From a virus, in the UHGV virus genome UHGV-0113858: DNA of 64,000 nt; one strand, 5' to 3'. The translations under genes were made by a program, and so were the position numbers. The notes beneath the pieces are model-generated. The model was not told where the DNA came from. It made no database searches and was given only the letters and a program-made list of their open reading frames with translations. Below, in pieces: positions 6,336 through 57,083 of this stretch. How positions within the stretch are numbered: position 1 is the stretch's first letter; every line of letters begins with the position of its first letter.

Positions 6336-6726
6336 GAAAGTTGTCCACAATTTGGATTTTGAGATTTACTTGATGGGGCTTGGTTGTTGTCTCATTGTGA
6401 ACTTTGAAGTACAAAATGGTCATGATCTGACTGGCTATAGGTATGACATTTTCTGTAACAGGAAGATTGTCGAGGTATATGGTGCCGGAGAAGGTGGTGA
6501 GAGGGAGATTATCATTTCCAGGGATTTCACGGATGATCCCCTCCACATCACAGAAGAAGAGCTTAGTCTGGTCGAAGTTATGATGACACACTTGTCGCCA
6601 TTCGAGAGAAGTTTGCACAAACTTGGATGTGATCTGGCTGTTCTTCACCATAATGATGCATCTCAAGAGTATGCCCAAGAGGTTGTTAAAAATCACTTGA
6701 ATAATTATCTGGAGGTAGAAACATGA
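6319..6726 (+). CDS. hypothetical protein (135 aa)
   Basis: ORF-track entry, overlaps the previous stop. Confidence 0.45.
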   Translation: MSTLNKKVVHNLDFEIYLMGLGCCLIVNFEVQNGHDLTGYRYDIFCNRKIVEVYGAGEGGEREIIISRDFTDDPLHITEEELSLVEVMMTHLSPFERSLHKLGCDLAVLHHNDASQEYAQEVVKNHLNNYLEVET

Positions 6727-7019
6727 GAATCTCTAAGAGTTTCAGTGTTTTATGCTCTTATGGGATGATATCCAATCTGAAGTTATCTTCAACGGATATC
6801 CGCATTTACCTGTACTTGAAATTCAGGTGGCAGTTCTTTCACAGCAAAGGCTCAGAGTTTTGTGAATCAACCACCACTATCTCTGAAGAGGTTGGTGTTT
6901 CTGAAAGGACTGTTCGTCGGTCTATGGAGAAATTAGAAGAGTTGGGATACCTAGAGGTAGTCAACCGACCAGGAAAAACCAGCCTGTATATCACCAAAGA
7001 TGAGGTGGCTATTAAGTAA
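6723..7019 (+). CDS. winged-helix/HTH DNA-binding protein (98 aa)
   Basis: SEEVGVSERTVRRSMEKLEELGYLE helix-turn-helix signature. SD GGAGGTAGAAACATG. Confidence 0.55.
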   Translation: MRISKSFSVLCSYGMISNLKLSSTDIRIYLYLKFRWQFFHSKGSEFCESTTTISEEVGVSERTVRRSMEKLEELGYLEVVNRPGKTSLYITKDEVAIK

Positions 7020-11248: not shown

Positions 11249-11523
11249 GATTCAAAACTGTGGGATATTTGTACGATATTTAATATCCCAAAGATATTTT
11301 AAAATTCGAAATGGTTTTCAAAATCGTTTTTGAAACGGATTTCATCTTACCTGCAAATTTTTAAATAAAGAGTTTTGGGAGTAGATTATCTCAAACCTTT
11401 GTGGAAGCTATGTCGAAAAATGATGCACAAGTGTATGATTGCTATAGGTATCTTGGCATCAAGATTGGACATTTATCTCAAATAGGCGAAAAAGATATCT
11501 CAAATTTTCAGGTAGAAAACTCT

Positions 11524-11730
11524 GGGTTCTCGATCGACTTTTCGTTTTCAAAAACGTATTTGCTCTCACTATCAAAAAATTTTTCTCTATATCAACCGGG
11601 TTCTCGATCGGTTTTTCAAAATCGAGATCGTAATTGTTTTTTCTCTAGAAAAAATTTTTCGGCCCGGTTCTCGATCGAGATCTCAATTTCCAGATCGTAT
11701 TTGTTTTCTTACGCGAAAAAATTTTTTAGG
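11524..11730. repeat. three tandem roughly 67-75 bp repeats (iteron-like; core GGTTCTCGATCG ... TTTTCAAAATCG ... AAAAAATTTTTC)
   Basis: Core motif at about 11524, 11598 and 11665. The A6T5C motif recurs at 11574, 11649 and 11715. Confidence 0.7.
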
Positions 11731-11787
11731 GGTATCGCTCAGTATCTCACATGAAAAATCAGAAGTCAATATTTAAATTTTTTGTTG

Positions 11788-11835
11788 AATGAGAAGCATT
11801 CTTATTTAGTTATTTGAATGATAATCATTCTCATT
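11788..11835. promoter_or_regulatory. two adjacent imperfect copies of the palindrome AATGAGAAnCATTCTCATT (operator-like)
   Basis: aatgagaagcattcttatt at 11788-11806 and aatgataatcattctcatt at 11817-11835. Confidence 0.5.
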
Positions 11836-12105
11836 TGCTGAATGACAGGCACCCCCGGTGTTTTGTACTCCGGTTTCAATGTTCCCGCTATGTGTATAAT
11901 ATAGGATACACGGCCCCATGTTGCAAGCGTCTTTACAATTCTTTACAAATAGACTTTAGGCGAGCTACCGGCGATCCACCTTCCAACCAGGTCTCCGCGC
12001 CTGGTATGTTAGCCCCGCCTTTCCGCCGTGGGGTGGCGTCTCTTCTCCTGTCTGATAAATATAACCCAAGCCGGGGCCGTTTGCAAGCCCCGCGATAAAA
12101 TATTT

Positions 12106-12291
12106 TTACTCCCAGGAGTCCGCGATCACTTCTCCATTTTCCGCAACAATTCTCACCCTGGTAAATCCTGAATTATACATTTTCAACGCAAAGGGTAAAG
12201 GCACGATCCTAACCTGGGGCGCTGCGCTTTCCGTCTCCCAGGTGGAAAGGGTAACCATTGTTTCACTCGTTATTACTTTTGCGTTTTCCAT
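12106..12291 (-). CDS. hypothetical protein (61 aa); the only minus-strand gene in the GC-rich block
   Basis: Carries the block-typical RBS AAAGGTAAACGAAATGG on the minus strand. Confidence 0.5.
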   Translation of the reverse strand: MENAKVITSETMVTLSTWETESAAPQVRIVPLPFALKMYNSGFTRVRIVAENGEVIADSWE

Positions 12292-12395
12292 TTCGTTTAC
12301 CTTTATTTGTTGGCGTCCTTATATAGTACACTAACCAGGCCGGGGCGCAAGCCCACACGAACAAAAATATTTTTAATTTATTTTCATCCAGGGTA

Positions 12396-12424
12396 TTGAC
12401 GCGGGGATCACTATCACTTAATAT
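12396..12424 (+). promoter_or_regulatory. sigma70-type promoter TTGACG-N17-TAATAT
   Basis: ttgacg cggggatcactatcact taatat. Confidence 0.5.
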
Positions 12425-12579
12425 TCATTTCACCGGGGCGGGGTGAATCCAAGGCCCCCGGTTGAAATAGTGGGGCGTGGAGTAAAGCGCAAGCGATGAG
12501 GATTCAATCTGGCCCGGAAAGGTGAGGATCTCCAAAATCCAGGGCAAAACAAAATTACATCTACTGAAGAGGCTACAAC

Positions 12580-12747
12580 ATGAAAAACATTTCTTTTACT
12601 ACCCGTGACCAGGCCCGCGCTTTTACCCGTAATGTTAACAGCAAGGTAACCACGGCGGCGCGTTTACGTCAACCTGTTAAAGATGGCGCCGGGCAATGGG
12701 TTATCCCTGGAATTAACCACGGTAAAACCTTATCCCTGGCTAAATAA
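12580..12747 (+). CDS. small protein (about 55 aa)
   Basis: SD GAAGAGG then ATG. Manual translation MKNISFTTRDQARAF... Below the track's 60-aa cutoff. Confidence 0.4.
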   Translation: MKNISFTTRDQARAFTRNVNSKVTTAARLRQPVKDGAGQWVIPGINHGKTLSLAK

Positions 12748-19161: not shown

Positions 19162-19311
19162 TAGGAAAAATCTTTACAATTCCAGGGCTTGTTTTCGGTC
19201 CTGGTTTTTGTTATTCTGTTTTTGAAGCGGCAACGATGGACACCGGAGGAAAGTCACCGGAGGTGCCCGCTATTATGGTAATGAGAATTACTCTCAACAA
19301 CACCTAAAATC

Positions 19312-21479: not shown

Positions 21480-23250
21480 GTCTCCACTACTCCCCAAAAA
21501 TAATGCCGGGCAACTCCCGCTTTTGTGTTTTTATACTTTAGGTTTTATCAATCAATAATCAAAAAGTGATAGATGACTAAAACCTGCATAATCGAGATCT
21601 CCAGACGGTAACCCACTAACCAGGGTAAGAGATAAAGCCCCTCAAAATGGCACATATTGCGCTTAAAATGGTATGGCCCTACCTAACAACCCCAACAATT
21701 AATAACGCATGTTATTAACTGAATAAAACATGCATTTTTAAGCATTATGTATGCATAGTGTGAGAATCGCTATCAAATGACAACTTTTATCATCTAGCCT
21801 ATTGTGTGAACTGGTTTTATTGAGCATAAAAATAAAATCTTGTCAAATAAAAATCGTTCGCGTAATCGTGGGGAGTGGCGCGAGCGTAGCGAGCGACACA
21901 ATAACACGGGAGTAACTCAAATGATAATCTCCCCGTCGCTAAAGCGATTAGCAACTAAAGTTGCTAACCCGTGGAACGGGCTATTATCATTTTCGTTCGC
22001 GTTATCGTGGCTCGTAGACGCCTAAGAGCGAATGAAAATTGTTATCATTAAGATGATTACATACGTAATCATTAACAGCCTAATTTTATCACATCGCCAC
22101 GATAACACCGATCACGCCCTGCGTGATCGCTCCCGTGTTATTGTGTCGATAGATATCGATTAGCGTAAACGCTAACCCGTTTCGGGCATTGATTGTGTCG
22201 GTATGTGATGATAACACATGGTTACTATATGCGATCAAATCGCATTAAATCGTGAATAATGGTTGACAAACCAGAATTATTGATAATGAAAACATGTTGT
22301 TTTTGAGCATAGTTTGCCTGAAGTGTCAATATAAATTTATCATAGGGAATAGCTATCAATCCCTTGCGTAGCAATAAAGAAAATAGTTACCTATTGTAAC
22401 TATTTCAATGCTTTAGCATTGCCGGGTATCCGGTCCGTAACGGTGTTGATGGGAATGATTATCATTGCGGAAATGCTCAAAGTATAGCTGTGTGTTAAAC
22501 ACAATTCTCTCTCCTTGTCAAGCTTTTATTTATAAATTTACAAAATATTTATATTTGCGGAATGATTCTCATTTCGAAATTGAATTCGAAATCGAAATAA
22601 TAATGATTCTCATTCGTCGTCTCATTCACAAAACAACCCTAAAACATGAATAATCACACATGAAACTATCACCACAGTAACAGTCACACCATGTAATGAC
22701 CTGAAGCGGCTGGCCTATGCGTCGCACTGGTAACATTGGGGCATTATTAGCTTGCTATGTGTTGTTATCTAGTGCGTATAACGTGTTTTATGTTAAATGG
22801 CGTAATTCATATAAATATAAACAAGTCAATAGCAAATCGTGCTCTAAGCTGGCAAACCATATGCTTGCTATGTATCACACACAATTATTATTAGTTTCGG
22901 CAAGTAACTATCATGTCTGAGGAGGCCCCGAGGAACCGGGAACCGGATCGACCTTGCCCATGATATTTTGTAAAGATCCGTAAAAATAGTTGACGCCCGG
23001 AGCTGTCCGTCTAGCACCTCAGACAGTGCGAATGCTCCAAAACACCCAGACAGATATTTTTCGGCAAGTGATATTTTCGGCAGGGGGCATGTTTTGATTT
23101 CCCCACGGGGGAAGGGGTGGTTATACGGGGAAAACAGGGGCCTGTTTACGGTATCGACATATCGGGGAGTCCCTTCAGATTGTGTGTTAATGAAATGAGT
23201 ACGTAGTACAATGAGAATCATTCTCATTTACAGACAACCGGGCAGGTCCG
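21480..23250. other. 1.8 kb noncoding, repeat- and palindrome-rich island (candidate origin, packaging or regulatory region)
   Basis: No credible ORF. Direct repeats CGTTCGCG(T/A)TATCGTGG (about 21854 and 21994). Inverted GTTATCGTGGC / GCCACGATAAC (about 22000 and 22097). GATAACAC repeated three times. Palindromes TTAGCAAC-TAAA-GTTGCTAA (about 21947) and TTAGCGT-AAA-ACGCTAA (about 22160). TCGAAAT repeated three times (about 22575). Confidence 0.6.
23210..23228. promoter_or_regulatory. perfect 19-bp palindrome AATGAGAATCATTCTCATT (operator-like), at the right edge of the noncoding island
   Basis: Related copies AATGATTCTCATT at 22561-22573 and 22602-22614. Confidence 0.55.
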
Positions 23251-23332
23251 GTGATTGTTTCGTGCAGCCTCAGCACCTGTTGCTGTGTGCAGGATAACAG
23301 GGTTGCCTATTCAGGTCAACCCCTTCGTGCGG

Positions 23333-24036: not shown

Positions 24037-24465
24037 TCAGATATTCTTGACTGCGATCAGGTTTGGGACATACGTACATGTTGGGGAGTAAGGGGTGTCC
24101 TTCCTGCGAAGCTGTGTCTTGCACAGAGAAGCATGTGATTGTGTGTCCACAGGCTCTCGGTCATAGAACGGATATCCGCTGCACATGTACGGGCGATCCT
24201 CGTAAATTGAGCACTTGTTGTCTTTCAGCTTTGTGCAGGTAAAGTAGCTGGTGAAGTGATTTGTTCCTTTACCAACTTCCTCACGACCTGTAACAACAAG
24301 AGGATTCCGTTTGTAGGCCTCATCCCTGGAGATTGGTTTCATCATCTCCCCGTGGATAGCAGATATTCTTCCGGCCCTGATTTTTTCGTGGAAGTCTTCG
24401 TGGGTGATGTTGTCTATGGCGATAACTTCACAACAGGCACTGCAATTATGGCAATGTTTTATCAT
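24037..24465 (-). CDS. Cys-rich protein (142 aa; CHNCSACC..., many Cys/His)
   Basis: ORF-track entry. Probable Zn-binding. Confidence 0.5.
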   Translation of the reverse strand: MIKHCHNCSACCEVIAIDNITHEDFHEKIRAGRISAIHGEMMKPISRDEAYKRNPLVVTGREEVGKGTNHFTSYFTCTKLKDNKCSIYEDRPYMCSGYPFYDREPVDTQSHASLCKTQLRRKDTPYSPTCTYVPNLIAVKNI

Positions 24466-26421: not shown

Positions 26422-26970
26422 CTATACACGATCACCAAACAGTTTTTCAAAGCTAGCCATTCTTTCTTTCACCCGTTCAGGGTCTGCGGACAAGAAGTGG
26501 CGACTATCGCCCCTGATAAGTGTTCCCGTGTAGCCGATACTTTTATTAAAGGCTGTGGCGATATCTTCCACAGCATATCCTCTCTTGTGCAGTTCCCTTA
26601 TGACCGCGACATCCTCGTCACTGAGTGCTTGATTTCCCGCCTTGATGTTCTTAGCAGTACCTTCGGGACCATTTTTACCCTTCACCATCCCCGTAACCTC
26701 ATAAAAGTATTCCGGGATTCTTGAAGGAACCAGCACAGGGTCTCTTAATCGGACGGCCTTTATAACCTTGTGGTATGAGATTCCCATCATTTCGGCTACT
26801 TTCGTCAAAGGCCATTTGGTGTACTTCTTGATGGCTTTCAGAAAGATAACCTCCTCGTTTGAGAGCGATCTCCCATTGGGGGTCCCACTCGGGTCCCACC
26901 ATTGGTAATCTCTTGCCATCTGCTGTAAAGACTGCGTTCCCATAGCCATATTTTTGCTTTCTATCTTCAT
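26422..26970 (-). CDS. DNA-binding protein with two HTH-like segments (182 aa)
   Basis: LTKVAEMMGISYHKVIKAV and VEDIATAFNKSIGYTGTLIRG. Confidence 0.5.
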   Translation of the reverse strand: MKIESKNMAMGTQSLQQMARDYQWWDPSGTPNGRSLSNEEVIFLKAIKKYTKWPLTKVAEMMGISYHKVIKAVRLRDPVLVPSRIPEYFYEVTGMVKGKNGPEGTAKNIKAGNQALSDEDVAVIRELHKRGYAVEDIATAFNKSIGYTGTLIRGDSRHFLSADPERVKERMASFEKLFGDRV

Positions 26971-56035: not shown

Positions 56036-56926
56036 TTACTTACCTGCTGGCAGATTTACGAAAGGTACTGCACCGTTGCCACCCATAATGGTCGGGGTTT
56101 TACCGTCCCACTTGTTGATCGCTTCCAGTTGCATGATTTCAGGGTTCTTACGGAGAGCATCACCACGCAGTTGGATGGATTCTGCTTCACCTTTTGCCAG
56201 AGCTACTTTAGCATCTGCCTGGCCCTGAGCTTGCAGTCGCTGGGATTCTGCTTCACCGCGAGCTGCTTCAATTTGTTTCTGAGCTTCAGCTTTAGTCTGC
56301 TGGATTTCGTTTTCACGCAGCAGCGCTTTCTGAGTCGCTTCGATCTTAGCGTTGATGGACGCAGTTACCTGAGGAGGATAACCAAGGTCATCAGTGTAAG
56401 ACAGTTTCACAATAATGATACCTACCGGATCAAGTTTCTGCTTCAGCGTCTTGGTCACTCGGTCCAGAAGCTGAGATTTACCATCACCAGCAAGTGTACC
56501 AATATCCATCGTACCAGCTTCTTTGATCAGCGCATCAGAGATGTTCTGACGGATGTTGACATCGGTAATCTCTTGGACGCCTTTACGGTAGGTCTGGAAG
56601 ATCTTGGTAACCTTGGAGCGGTCAACGTAATACTCAACACCGATCTTTGCAGTAACCGTCATAGAATCTTTGGTCTGGAAGTTAAACGGTTGTTCGTAGT
56701 TGTTCAACTGGTTAAACGTCGGGAACTGATAGATCTCTTCGTTCCAGGTTAACCAATACTTACCAACGCCCACTTCTTGCTGCTGAACGCCTTTCTCATC
56801 ACCATACAGGTCAACCTTAACACCCACATAACCCGCCGGAACAGTTGCACGTTCACAACCAGTCAGACCAATTGCACCCAGGGCGATCAGTCCAGCAAAT
56901 ACTACGCGTTTGATATTCTTAAGCAT
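56036..56926 (-). CDS. SPFH/band-7 (stomatin/prohibitin/HflK-C family) lipoprotein
   Basis: Lipobox LTGC after a signal sequence. SPFH core. C-terminal coiled coil AQKQIEAARGEAESQRLQAQGQADAKVALAKGEAES. Confidence 0.7.
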   Translation of the reverse strand: MLKNIKRVVFAGLIALGAIGLTGCERATVPAGYVGVKVDLYGDEKGVQQQEVGVGKYWLTWNEEIYQFPTFNQLNNYEQPFNFQTKDSMTVTAKIGVEYYVDRSKVTKIFQTYRKGVQEITDVNIRQNISDALIKEAGTMDIGTLAGDGKSQLLDRVTKTLKQKLDPVGIIIVKLSYTDDLGYPPQVTASINAKIEATQKALLRENEIQQTKAEAQKQIEAARGEAESQRLQAQGQADAKVALAKGEAESIQLRGDALRKNPEIMQLEAINKWDGKTPTIMGGNGAVPFVNLPAGK

Positions 56927-57083
56927 CAGTTTGTTTCTCCTCTTTGATTTTATACTCAGTCTTTACGTTTTCATCAACGTGGTCATCTACGATTTTTGCA
57001 ACATAAGATGCCGCAGACTTACCTTTGGACTTTGCCAAGTGCTGCAACTTTTCCCAAGTTGCCGCCTTCAAATTTAGCAACAT
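56919..57083 (-). CDS. small ribbon-helix-helix-like protein (about 54 aa)
   Basis: SD CTGGAGGAGATCGATAATG. Manual translation MLLNLKAATWEKLQHLAKSKGKSAASYVAKIV... Stop overlaps the SPFH ATG (ATGCTTAA). Confidence 0.4.
   Translation of the reverse strand: MLLNLKAATWEKLQHLAKSKGKSAASYVAKIVDDHVDENVKTEYKIKEEKQTDA

Follow-up and report, generated by a model that had tools for sequence, protein, structure and literature searches.

Cyanophages carry Pho boxes upstream of pstS and phoA, and multicopy Fur boxes titrate Fur, which is the basis of the Fur titration assay (FURTA). The stx1 promoter reportedly places a Fur box on temperate-phage cargo. To our knowledge, a natural phage Fur sponge has not been described. 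Fur boxes are likewise present on temperate-phage cargo in the case of sitABCD on lambdoid phages (PMC6969025). The published 19-bp Fur consensus, GATAATGATAATCATTATC, is read as overlapping 7-1-7 repeats, and at Fur-repressed promoters the box overlaps the -35 and -10 hexamers (PMC11353095). Here we examine a recurring 19-bp palindrome in the virus genome UHGV-0113858, of which a stretch of 64,000 nucleotides (hereafter, the window) was analyzed. A first-pass annotation had suggested that this palindrome is the operator of a dimeric phage or host regulator coordinating two regulatory hubs. To judge from its letters, it is a 7-1-7 Fur box (TGAnAATnATTnTCA) and is not phage-specific, and its copies are probably operators of host Fe2+-Fur laid over weak sigma-70 promoters at fixed places in two control regions.

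The perfect 9+1+9 palindrome, AATGAGAATCATTCTCATT, lies at positions 23210–23228. A re-scan of the window reproduced the coordinates previously assigned to this copy, to the core variants at 22561 and 22602 (exact copies of the 13-mer AATGATTCTCATT at 22561–22573 and 22602–22614), and to the tandem copies at 11788–11835. When up to three mismatches to AATGAGAATCATTCTCATT are allowed, copies begin at 11788, 11817, 22448, 22596, and 23210, giving nine strand-matches where 0.03 are expected, and none of 100 dinucleotide-preserving shuffles yielded nine matches at this threshold. An independent query, the symmetrized Fur 7-1-7 consensus AATGATAATNATTATCATT, recovered five sites at three or fewer mismatches where 0.10 are expected: 11817 with one mismatch; 22031, 22596, and 23210 with two each; and 22448 with three. 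The 15-bp Fur core occurs without mismatch at 11819 and 23212. By both queries, the motif is far more frequent than chance would allow. All strong sites in the window are confined to two non-coding islands, which gene maps of relatives place at ~11250–12680 and ~21480–23330, on either side of a block of small plus-strand genes of early type. The restriction of sites to two non-coding hubs holds, and position is kept in relatives. Three sites had escaped the first-pass annotation, at 22031–22049 (two mismatches), at 22448–22466 (three mismatches), and at 21761–21794, where there is a degenerate double site.

The window is 92 to 97% identical to Mydovirus phages (Vequintavirinae, ~145 kb) of Klebsiella, Proteus, and Raoultella, such as KB57, Mydo, and VLCpiM5b, and it belongs to a virulent Klebsiella Mydovirus. 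A search for similarity between the island and E. coli genomes returned no match. In the complete genome of a related phage, KNP2 (146,203 bp), all four sites with three or fewer mismatches fall within the two islands, compared with a block-shuffle mean of 0.2. Within the first island (region 1), the deeply conserved box is that at 11817, and the TTGAATGAnAATCATTnTCATTTGCnGAAT block is invariant in 22 of its 25 columns across five divergent genomes, versus 35% overall, which ranks it among the two most conserved 25-bp blocks of the region. These data bear on the simplest alternative, that the palindromes are chance products of AT-rich DNA and have no function. The islands are indeed AT-rich (GC 0.36–0.38), but dinucleotide-preserving shuffles predict 0.03 to 0.10 sites where five to nine are seen, and positions are kept across subfamilies. 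Because of the shuffle enrichment, the island restriction in KNP2, and the column conservation in region 1, the chance explanation is effectively refuted, and we treat it as excluded.

Identity to Fur operators was computed directly, as were enrichment, localization, and conservation. The window sites fit both the 19-bp consensus GATAATGATAATCATTATC and the 7-1-7 inverted repeat TGATAATnATTATCA, a form that they have in common with the ryhB and iucA P1 operators. The phage core TGAGAAT-C-ATTCTCA equals the Fur 7-1-7 unit bearing one symmetric T-to-G change. The box at 22596–22614, which reads AATGAGAATCATTATTATT on the minus strand, agrees at 18 of 19 positions with AATGAGAATGATTATTATT, the ryhB operator of E. 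coli, and has an uninterrupted run of 16 bases, AATGAGAATCATTATT, in common with the aerobactin iucA operator. For the latter comparison, a plasmid search found the iucA promoter sequence GATAATGAGAATCATTATT unchanged on 804 plasmids (52 from Klebsiella), where it lies ~20 bp upstream of iucA. The exact phage 19-mer is present in at least 120 bacterial genome stretches, and it sits solely within a long open reading frame at only 4 of 60 bacterial loci inspected. Of twenty genes adjoining the bacterial 19-mer, ten had been picked by size (~700 aa) and ten taken in listing order with products not known beforehand; the 19-mer stands upstream of six TonB-dependent receptors, FeoB, an FTR1 iron permease, an esterase, and two binding proteins of the SBP_bac_6/8 type. 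From phage to phage, orthologous boxes differ yet remain on the Fur consensus, with 0-mismatch boxes in VLCpiM5b (AATGATAATTATTATCATT) and 4MG (AATGATAATCATTATCATT). Variation among 41 distinct box variants is concentrated at positions 6, 10, and 14, a pattern that is partly circular given that the sites were selected by the consensus.

Other identities for the palindrome were considered. ARG-box, CRP, and FNR sites were ruled out by eye, with the half-site spacing suiting Fur 7-1-7 alone. An intrinsic terminator was also rejected; the palindrome is AT-rich with a 1-nt center, and a terminator scan was silent there. A tblastn search of the window with E. coli Fur identified no Fur homologue (best E value 0.44, which is noise). 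The earlier suggestion of a dimer-type operator is borne out, and the canonical operator sequence points to the host regulator Fur, whereas the phage regulators named at that time did not hold up, as described below.

Three of the boxes belong to a cassette of constant plan, in which a Fur box is followed after exactly 12 nt by GGCA(C/G)nnCCGGTG (GGCAnnnCCGGTG). The three window copies keep this spacing and are paralogous: r1 at 11817–11860 (+), r2 at 23210–23253 (+), and r3 at 19298–19255 (-). The 12-nt spacer holds a -10-like hexamer, which is CTGAAT or CAGAAT in r1, CATAAT in r3, and degenerate in r2. With its upstream hexamer included, r1 spans 11814–11860 on the plus strand and comprises the -35-like TTGAAT (11814–11819), the Fur box AATGATAATCATTCTCATT (11817–11835, with its single mismatch to the Fur consensus), the -10-like CTGAAT (11838–11843), and the element GGCACCCCCGGTG (11848–11860). 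TTGAAT stands 18 nt upstream of the -10-like hexamer, so that the 19-bp box occupies the spacer, and the arrangement TTGAAT-18-nAGAAT is conserved. By analogy, the geometry of r1 would be that of a Fur-repressed promoter such as iucA P1, where the box overlaps the -35 and -10 hexamers (PMC11353095) as the phage boxes overlap their -35- and -10-like counterparts. A sigma-54 reading of GGCAC-N5-GGTG was dismissed on visual inspection, since that sequence lacks the -12 GC.

The r2 cassette (23210–23253, +) consists of the perfect box AATGAGAATCATTCTCATT at 23210–23228, the 12-nt spacer, and GGCAGGTCCGGTG at 23241–23253. Its box lies within a 31-bp insertion that this phage and VLCpiM5b alone carry among six aligned genomes; PVP-SE1 has a degenerate copy nearby. 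The r3 cassette (19255–19298, -) occupies an ordinary intergenic gap between early genes and is kept in VLCpiM5b, KB57, Mydo, and 4MG. It is composed of the box GTTGAGAGTAATTCTCATT (19298–19280), the -10-like CATAAT (19277–19272), and GGCACCTCCGGTG (19267–19255), all on the minus strand. The first-pass annotation had recorded a half-site at 19280–19288. The location is right, but the site is nearly full, as 19282–19296 (TGAGAATTACTCTCA) has one mismatch to the 15-bp core. The sole constant in cassette orientation is that r1 is directed at the rightward early block, whereas r2 and r3 are directed against oncoming genes. Counting inward from the second island, the second gene (24037–24465, -) encodes a CxxCxxCC/YkgJ-family protein, putatively zinc- or iron-chelating, which r2 would read antisense.

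The cassette is kept in Mydovirus, Seunavirus, Certrevirus (CR8), Vequintavirus (V5), Phapecoctavirus (nepoznato), and Justusliebigvirus (arall), and a looser form is present in Vibrio phage 11895-B1. It therefore spans two phage subfamilies, Vequintavirinae and Stephanstirmvirinae, plus the Vibrio phage. A distant-mode search with 11500–12110 returned 363 phage records, 217 of them from Escherichia phages and the others including further genera. This breadth bears on the possibility that the palindrome is the operator of a phage-encoded dimeric DNA-binding protein whose site resembles or mimics a Fur box. The candidates would be the 98-aa winged helix-turn-helix (wHTH) protein encoded at 6723–7019 or an unrecognized one. 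Small HTH proteins are encoded in the window, and the second conserved element GGCAnnnCCGGTG, together with motifs such as TCTTTACAA, implies extra phage-specific factors. The 363 records, however, include genera with no detected candidate, whereas the wHTH protein was found in 68 phage records and the double-HTH protein encoded at 26422–26970 in 26, all Mydovirus, although tblastn may overlook fast-evolving small proteins and the absence of candidates is not proof. Neither of these two proteins thus co-occurs with the operators across related genomes. Nor does either gene have the layout of an autoregulator, both being several kb from any box, and the nearest HTH gene is 4.8 kb away. Moreover, orthologous boxes drift toward the Fur consensus and reach 0 mismatches in two relatives. 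We consider a phage-encoded binder quite unlikely.

Both proteins had been named as candidate regulators by the first-pass annotation, along with a ribbon-helix-helix (RHH)-like product of 56919–57083, and none of the three proposals survives inspection. The wHTH protein is a generic HTH_36 member that some records call a replication initiator; assignment to DtxR or Rrf2 was rejected, its sub-threshold N-domain cross-matches being deemed generic wHTH similarity. The double-HTH protein gives sub-threshold HTH matches alone. Read on the minus strand, 56919–57083 matches no DNA-binding family; on the plus strand, the frame is interrupted by a stop.

Tandem arrangement is a second recurrent property of the sites. 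In region 1, a 29-bp tandem duplication has the distal Fur-like box AATGAGAAGCATTCTTATT (11788–11806) as its upstream copy and the r1 box at 11817–11835 as its other copy; the two copies are imperfect, and the duplication is found in some relatives and missing in others. Additional boxes frequently precede the cassette box, and the arrays hold one to four boxes at a conserved 29-bp period, with two boxes in the window, 4MG, and V5 and four in CR8 and nepoznato, and the arall array packs three boxes more tightly. Outside this phage group, IMG/VR contig L187 carries three exact copies of the 19-mer in tandem (1810–1888, 30-bp period), and six further IMG/VR contigs (L161, L177, L138, L140, L141, and L197) carry two or three exact copies. 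None of the seven contigs has detectable sequence similarity to the window, and Fur palindrome arrays may be a wider phage feature.

Such arrays raise the possibility of a Fur decoy, in which control of phage promoters would not be the main role of the boxes and ~8 sites per genome multiplied by hundreds of replicated copies would titrate Fur and derepress host iron uptake, making iron available to the phage, for instance for iron-dependent enzymes. Fur titration by multicopy boxes is established, many of the phage sites are arrayed without an obvious regulated gene, individual sites turn over from relative to relative at a maintained local density, and exact copies also stand in tandem, with a 30-bp period, on the unrelated IMG/VR contigs. 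A pure decoy, however, has no need for the fixed spacing and orientation of the proximal box relative to the hexamers and GGCAnnnCCGGTG across subfamilies, and some relatives have a single box in region 1. The stoichiometry is also uncertain, as Fur is abundant, with thousands of copies per cell. As the explanation of the sites, a sponge appears unlikely, but it is compatible with operator function at the same boxes and possibly additive to it.

The boxes of the second island stand in a different setting, one that on the rV5 genome map is drawn at this position as a 'non-coding' box with no function assigned (PMC3606486). From left to right, the first sites are the two adjoining degenerate Fur-like sequences TGAGAATCGCTATCA and AATGACAACTTTTATCATC at 21761–21794, whose position is kept in Mydovirus and Seunavirus. 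There follows an ancestral Fur box, AATGATAAT-AC-TTATCATT (AATGATAATACTTATCATT when whole), which the first-pass annotation had overlooked and which spans 21920–21991 in the window, with its halves at 21920–21928 and 21984–21991. This box is intact in KB57 and PVP-SE1 and present as variants in VLCpiM5b and 4MG, and a ~53-bp multi-hairpin insertion (about 21929–21983) interrupts it in Mydo as well as in the window. The box AATGAAAATTGTTATCATT at 22031–22049 is shared with KB57 but is lacking in VLCpiM5b and Mydo, and the box GATGGGAATGATTATCATT at 22448–22466 has a position that is kept across genera and a sequence that varies. The half-site or core GGAATGATTCTCATT at 22559–22573, which is kept in PVP-SE1 and 4MG, overlaps AATGAT, the -10-like hexamer of a promoter-like TTTACA-18-AATGAT (22537–22566, +). 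The position of the box at 22596–22614 is likewise kept across genera, and the positions 22448, 22559, and 22596 are all kept from Mydovirus to Seunavirus.

The multi-hairpin insertion is not the only one of its kind. Segments of 45 to 70 bp composed of two to four consecutive mini-hairpins occur at 21929–21983, 22155–22200, and 22375–22445 and are present or absent among close relatives; one of them cuts the ancestral Fur box exactly at its center. These insertions look like small mobile or recombinogenic cassettes. The ancestral box is also flanked by a direct repeat, TCGTTCGCGT(A/T)ATCGTGG, at 21854–21871 and 21993–22010 and by a 26-nt inverted repeat (CGACACAATAACACGGGAG...) at 21887–21912 and 22130–22155. 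Both repeats are almost invariant across genera, and their architecture is iteron- or origin-like.

The second island also houses the physical genome ends, because the record of Klebsiella phage DP begins and ends with identical 514-bp repeats, which map to window positions 22498–23011, and because a 514-bp direct terminal repeat was identified in KPP-1 through doubled read coverage and PhageTerm (PMC9862379). Relative to this terminal-repeat equivalent, the sites at 22559 and 22596 lie 60 to 115 bp inside the left edge, the site at 22448 lies 32 bp outside it, and the box at 23210 lies ~200 bp past the right edge. A perfect 12-nt inverted pair, TTTACAAAATAT, is located within the terminal-repeat equivalent at 22537–22548 and 22963–22974. 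The motif TCTTTACAA recurs in tandem at 11930 and 11940 (11930–11948), singly at 19171–19179 near r3, and at 22968–22976 (-) in the second island. Both TCTTTACAA and TTTACAAAATAT may be sites for a phage factor.

Given this location, the palindromes could instead be a cis-acting replication or packaging element, that is, part of an origin or of the signals for terminal-repeat processing, which would serve as a binding site for an initiator or terminase or form a cruciform, and whose likeness to Fur boxes would be incidental. In favor of this explanation, the second island contains the 514-bp terminal repeat and is dense in iteron-like repeats (TCGTTCGCGTWATCGTGG twice and the 26-nt inverted repeat), and three direct repeats of about 64 nt lie beside the region 1 boxes. 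It nevertheless leaves unexplained the match to Fur operators and the drift on the Fur consensus, and it does not account for r3, which sits between early genes, or for the iron-gene context of the exact motif in bacteria. In addition, 9-bp AT-rich arms with a 1-nt center make poor cruciforms. We regard it as very unlikely.

The surroundings of r1 were inspected for a product. Downstream of the r1 box is a ~200-nt non-coding module (11848–12052, +) that ends in a weak terminator-like hairpin (12015–12038) and is conserved at the sequence level across subfamilies. The first-pass annotation had tied the tandem boxes to the start of this 'GC-rich module', and the link is partly right: the proximal box at 11817 stands at a fixed distance upstream of the module in all relatives examined. 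Within the module, GCTACCGGCGATCCACCTTCC (11959–11983) matches the Fur box in conservation, with 22 of 25 invariant columns, and is nearly invariant from Mydovirus to Stephanstirmvirinae. Rfam searches of the window at the gathering threshold and a tRNA scan returned nothing, and Rfam at permissive E values returned noise alone from both islands. Covariation in the module, assessed on both strands in 11 divergent sequences, was approximately zero, with one to two compensatory pairs. We therefore do not claim a Fur-regulated small RNA of the RyhB type from the r1 module, because it has neither an Rfam match nor covariation. Small open reading frames that run over the boxes (11814–12098 and 22465–22653) were rejected as coding, because indels in relatives break their frames.

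After the module comes a small minus-strand gene in Mydovirus, Seunavirus, and Phapecoctavirus, whereas plus-strand genes follow directly in V5 and CR8. In the window, the minus-strand gene is 12106–12291; it lies after the r1 module and ahead of the plus-strand early genes, encodes a 61-aa DUF7170 member (E value 2e-25), and would be read antisense by any r1 transcript. Just left of the region 1 boxes, three direct repeats of 64 to 74 nt (CCGGGTTCTCGATCG...AAAAAATTTTT) occupy 11522–11726. A conserved leftward promoter of the sigma-70 type, TTGACT-17-TGnGATACT (11769–11741) with an A/T-rich UP-like tract, stands upstream of them.

Taken as operators of host Fur, the boxes would work as follows. 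In an iron-replete cell, host RNA polymerase would be blocked by Fe2+-Fur dimers bound to the boxes, with binding along the arrays probably cooperative; in an iron-starved cell, the cassette promoters would fire. The predicted iron-responsive output would be a few transcripts of non-coding, leader, or antisense type, arising at the head of the rightward early-gene block, within the block, and beside and within the terminal repeat. Host regulators would be the sole regulators at hand upon DNA entry, and the sites suggest that these phages read host iron status. Note that Fur binding, promoter activity, transcript direction, and physiological effect are all inferred.

Several observations weigh against this assignment. 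A simple promoter scan made no plus-strand call over the region 1 boxes, and the hexamers CTGAAT and CGGAAT are weak, lacking A at position 2; they could simply be extra Fur hexamers instead of -10 elements. No iron-related gene lies directly downstream of the boxes, the nearest being the gene for the CxxCxxCC protein, which is on the opposite strand. A search of the literature found no transcriptome for this phage group. Choosing the first ten bacterial neighbor genes by size favored TonB receptors and thus biased that sample. Finally, comparison of the six aligned genomes revealed that second-island sites turn over individually. Because several of them have been gained, lost, or split between close relatives, not every copy there can be essential. 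Nevertheless, host Fur remains the probable reader of these boxes.

Set beside the described systems, the phage sites combine familiar and unfamiliar properties. Unlike those of ryhB and iucA, they are predicted from sequence, lie on a strictly lytic genome with no iron-acquisition gene downstream, and are embedded in the GGCAnnnCCGGTG cassette and in 29-bp-period arrays. As with sitABCD and stx1, a host Fur site on phage DNA would tie phage-borne transcription to the host Fur regulon, but those sites govern prophage-expressed morons that benefit the lysogen, whereas the sites described here occupy early and terminal non-coding regions of virulent phages in two subfamilies. The cyanophage Pho boxes share the logic of a lytic phage tuning its own transcription through a host nutrient-sensing regulator; the regulator and the nutrient are different, and clear auxiliary metabolic genes are the targets there, compared with apparently non-coding targets here. 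FURTA has in common with the phage genome multiple high-affinity boxes (predicted in our case) on a high-copy replicon, but it is a laboratory plasmid artifact. Fur boxes are textbook knowledge, the operator is canonical, and examples on temperate-phage cargo are already known. What appears to be new is the host-independent (lytic) context, the cassette architecture, the 29-bp arrays, and the association with genome termini. In our literature search, no publication turned up that describes conserved Fur boxes for virulent Vequintavirinae or Stephanstirmvirinae, or for the non-coding or terminal regions of these phages.

In its most far-reaching form, the proposal would be that the large virulent enterobacterial myoviruses of the Vequintavirinae and Stephanstirmvirinae carry an ancient Fur-gated switch, placed where the early region begins and at the genome ends, which makes non-coding or antisense transcripts in iron-starved hosts only, and whose arrays might also soak up Fur and open host iron import. 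We consider this full version doubtful. If it applied, infection would be reprogrammed by host iron status, and in this respect laboratory broth and the infected body are very different. Body fluids are iron-limited, so most Fur there is not bound to its sites. Phages of these groups rank among the most widely used therapy candidates against Klebsiella, E. coli, and Salmonella, and if their early or terminal transcription is partly Fur-gated, behavior in broth would not predict behavior in the patient. If true, the Fur assignment would also give a function to the 'non-coding' boxes that have appeared on Vequintavirinae maps since rV5 (PMC3606486), and it would provide a clear case of a strictly lytic phage wired into a global host nutrient regulon via conserved non-coding DNA.

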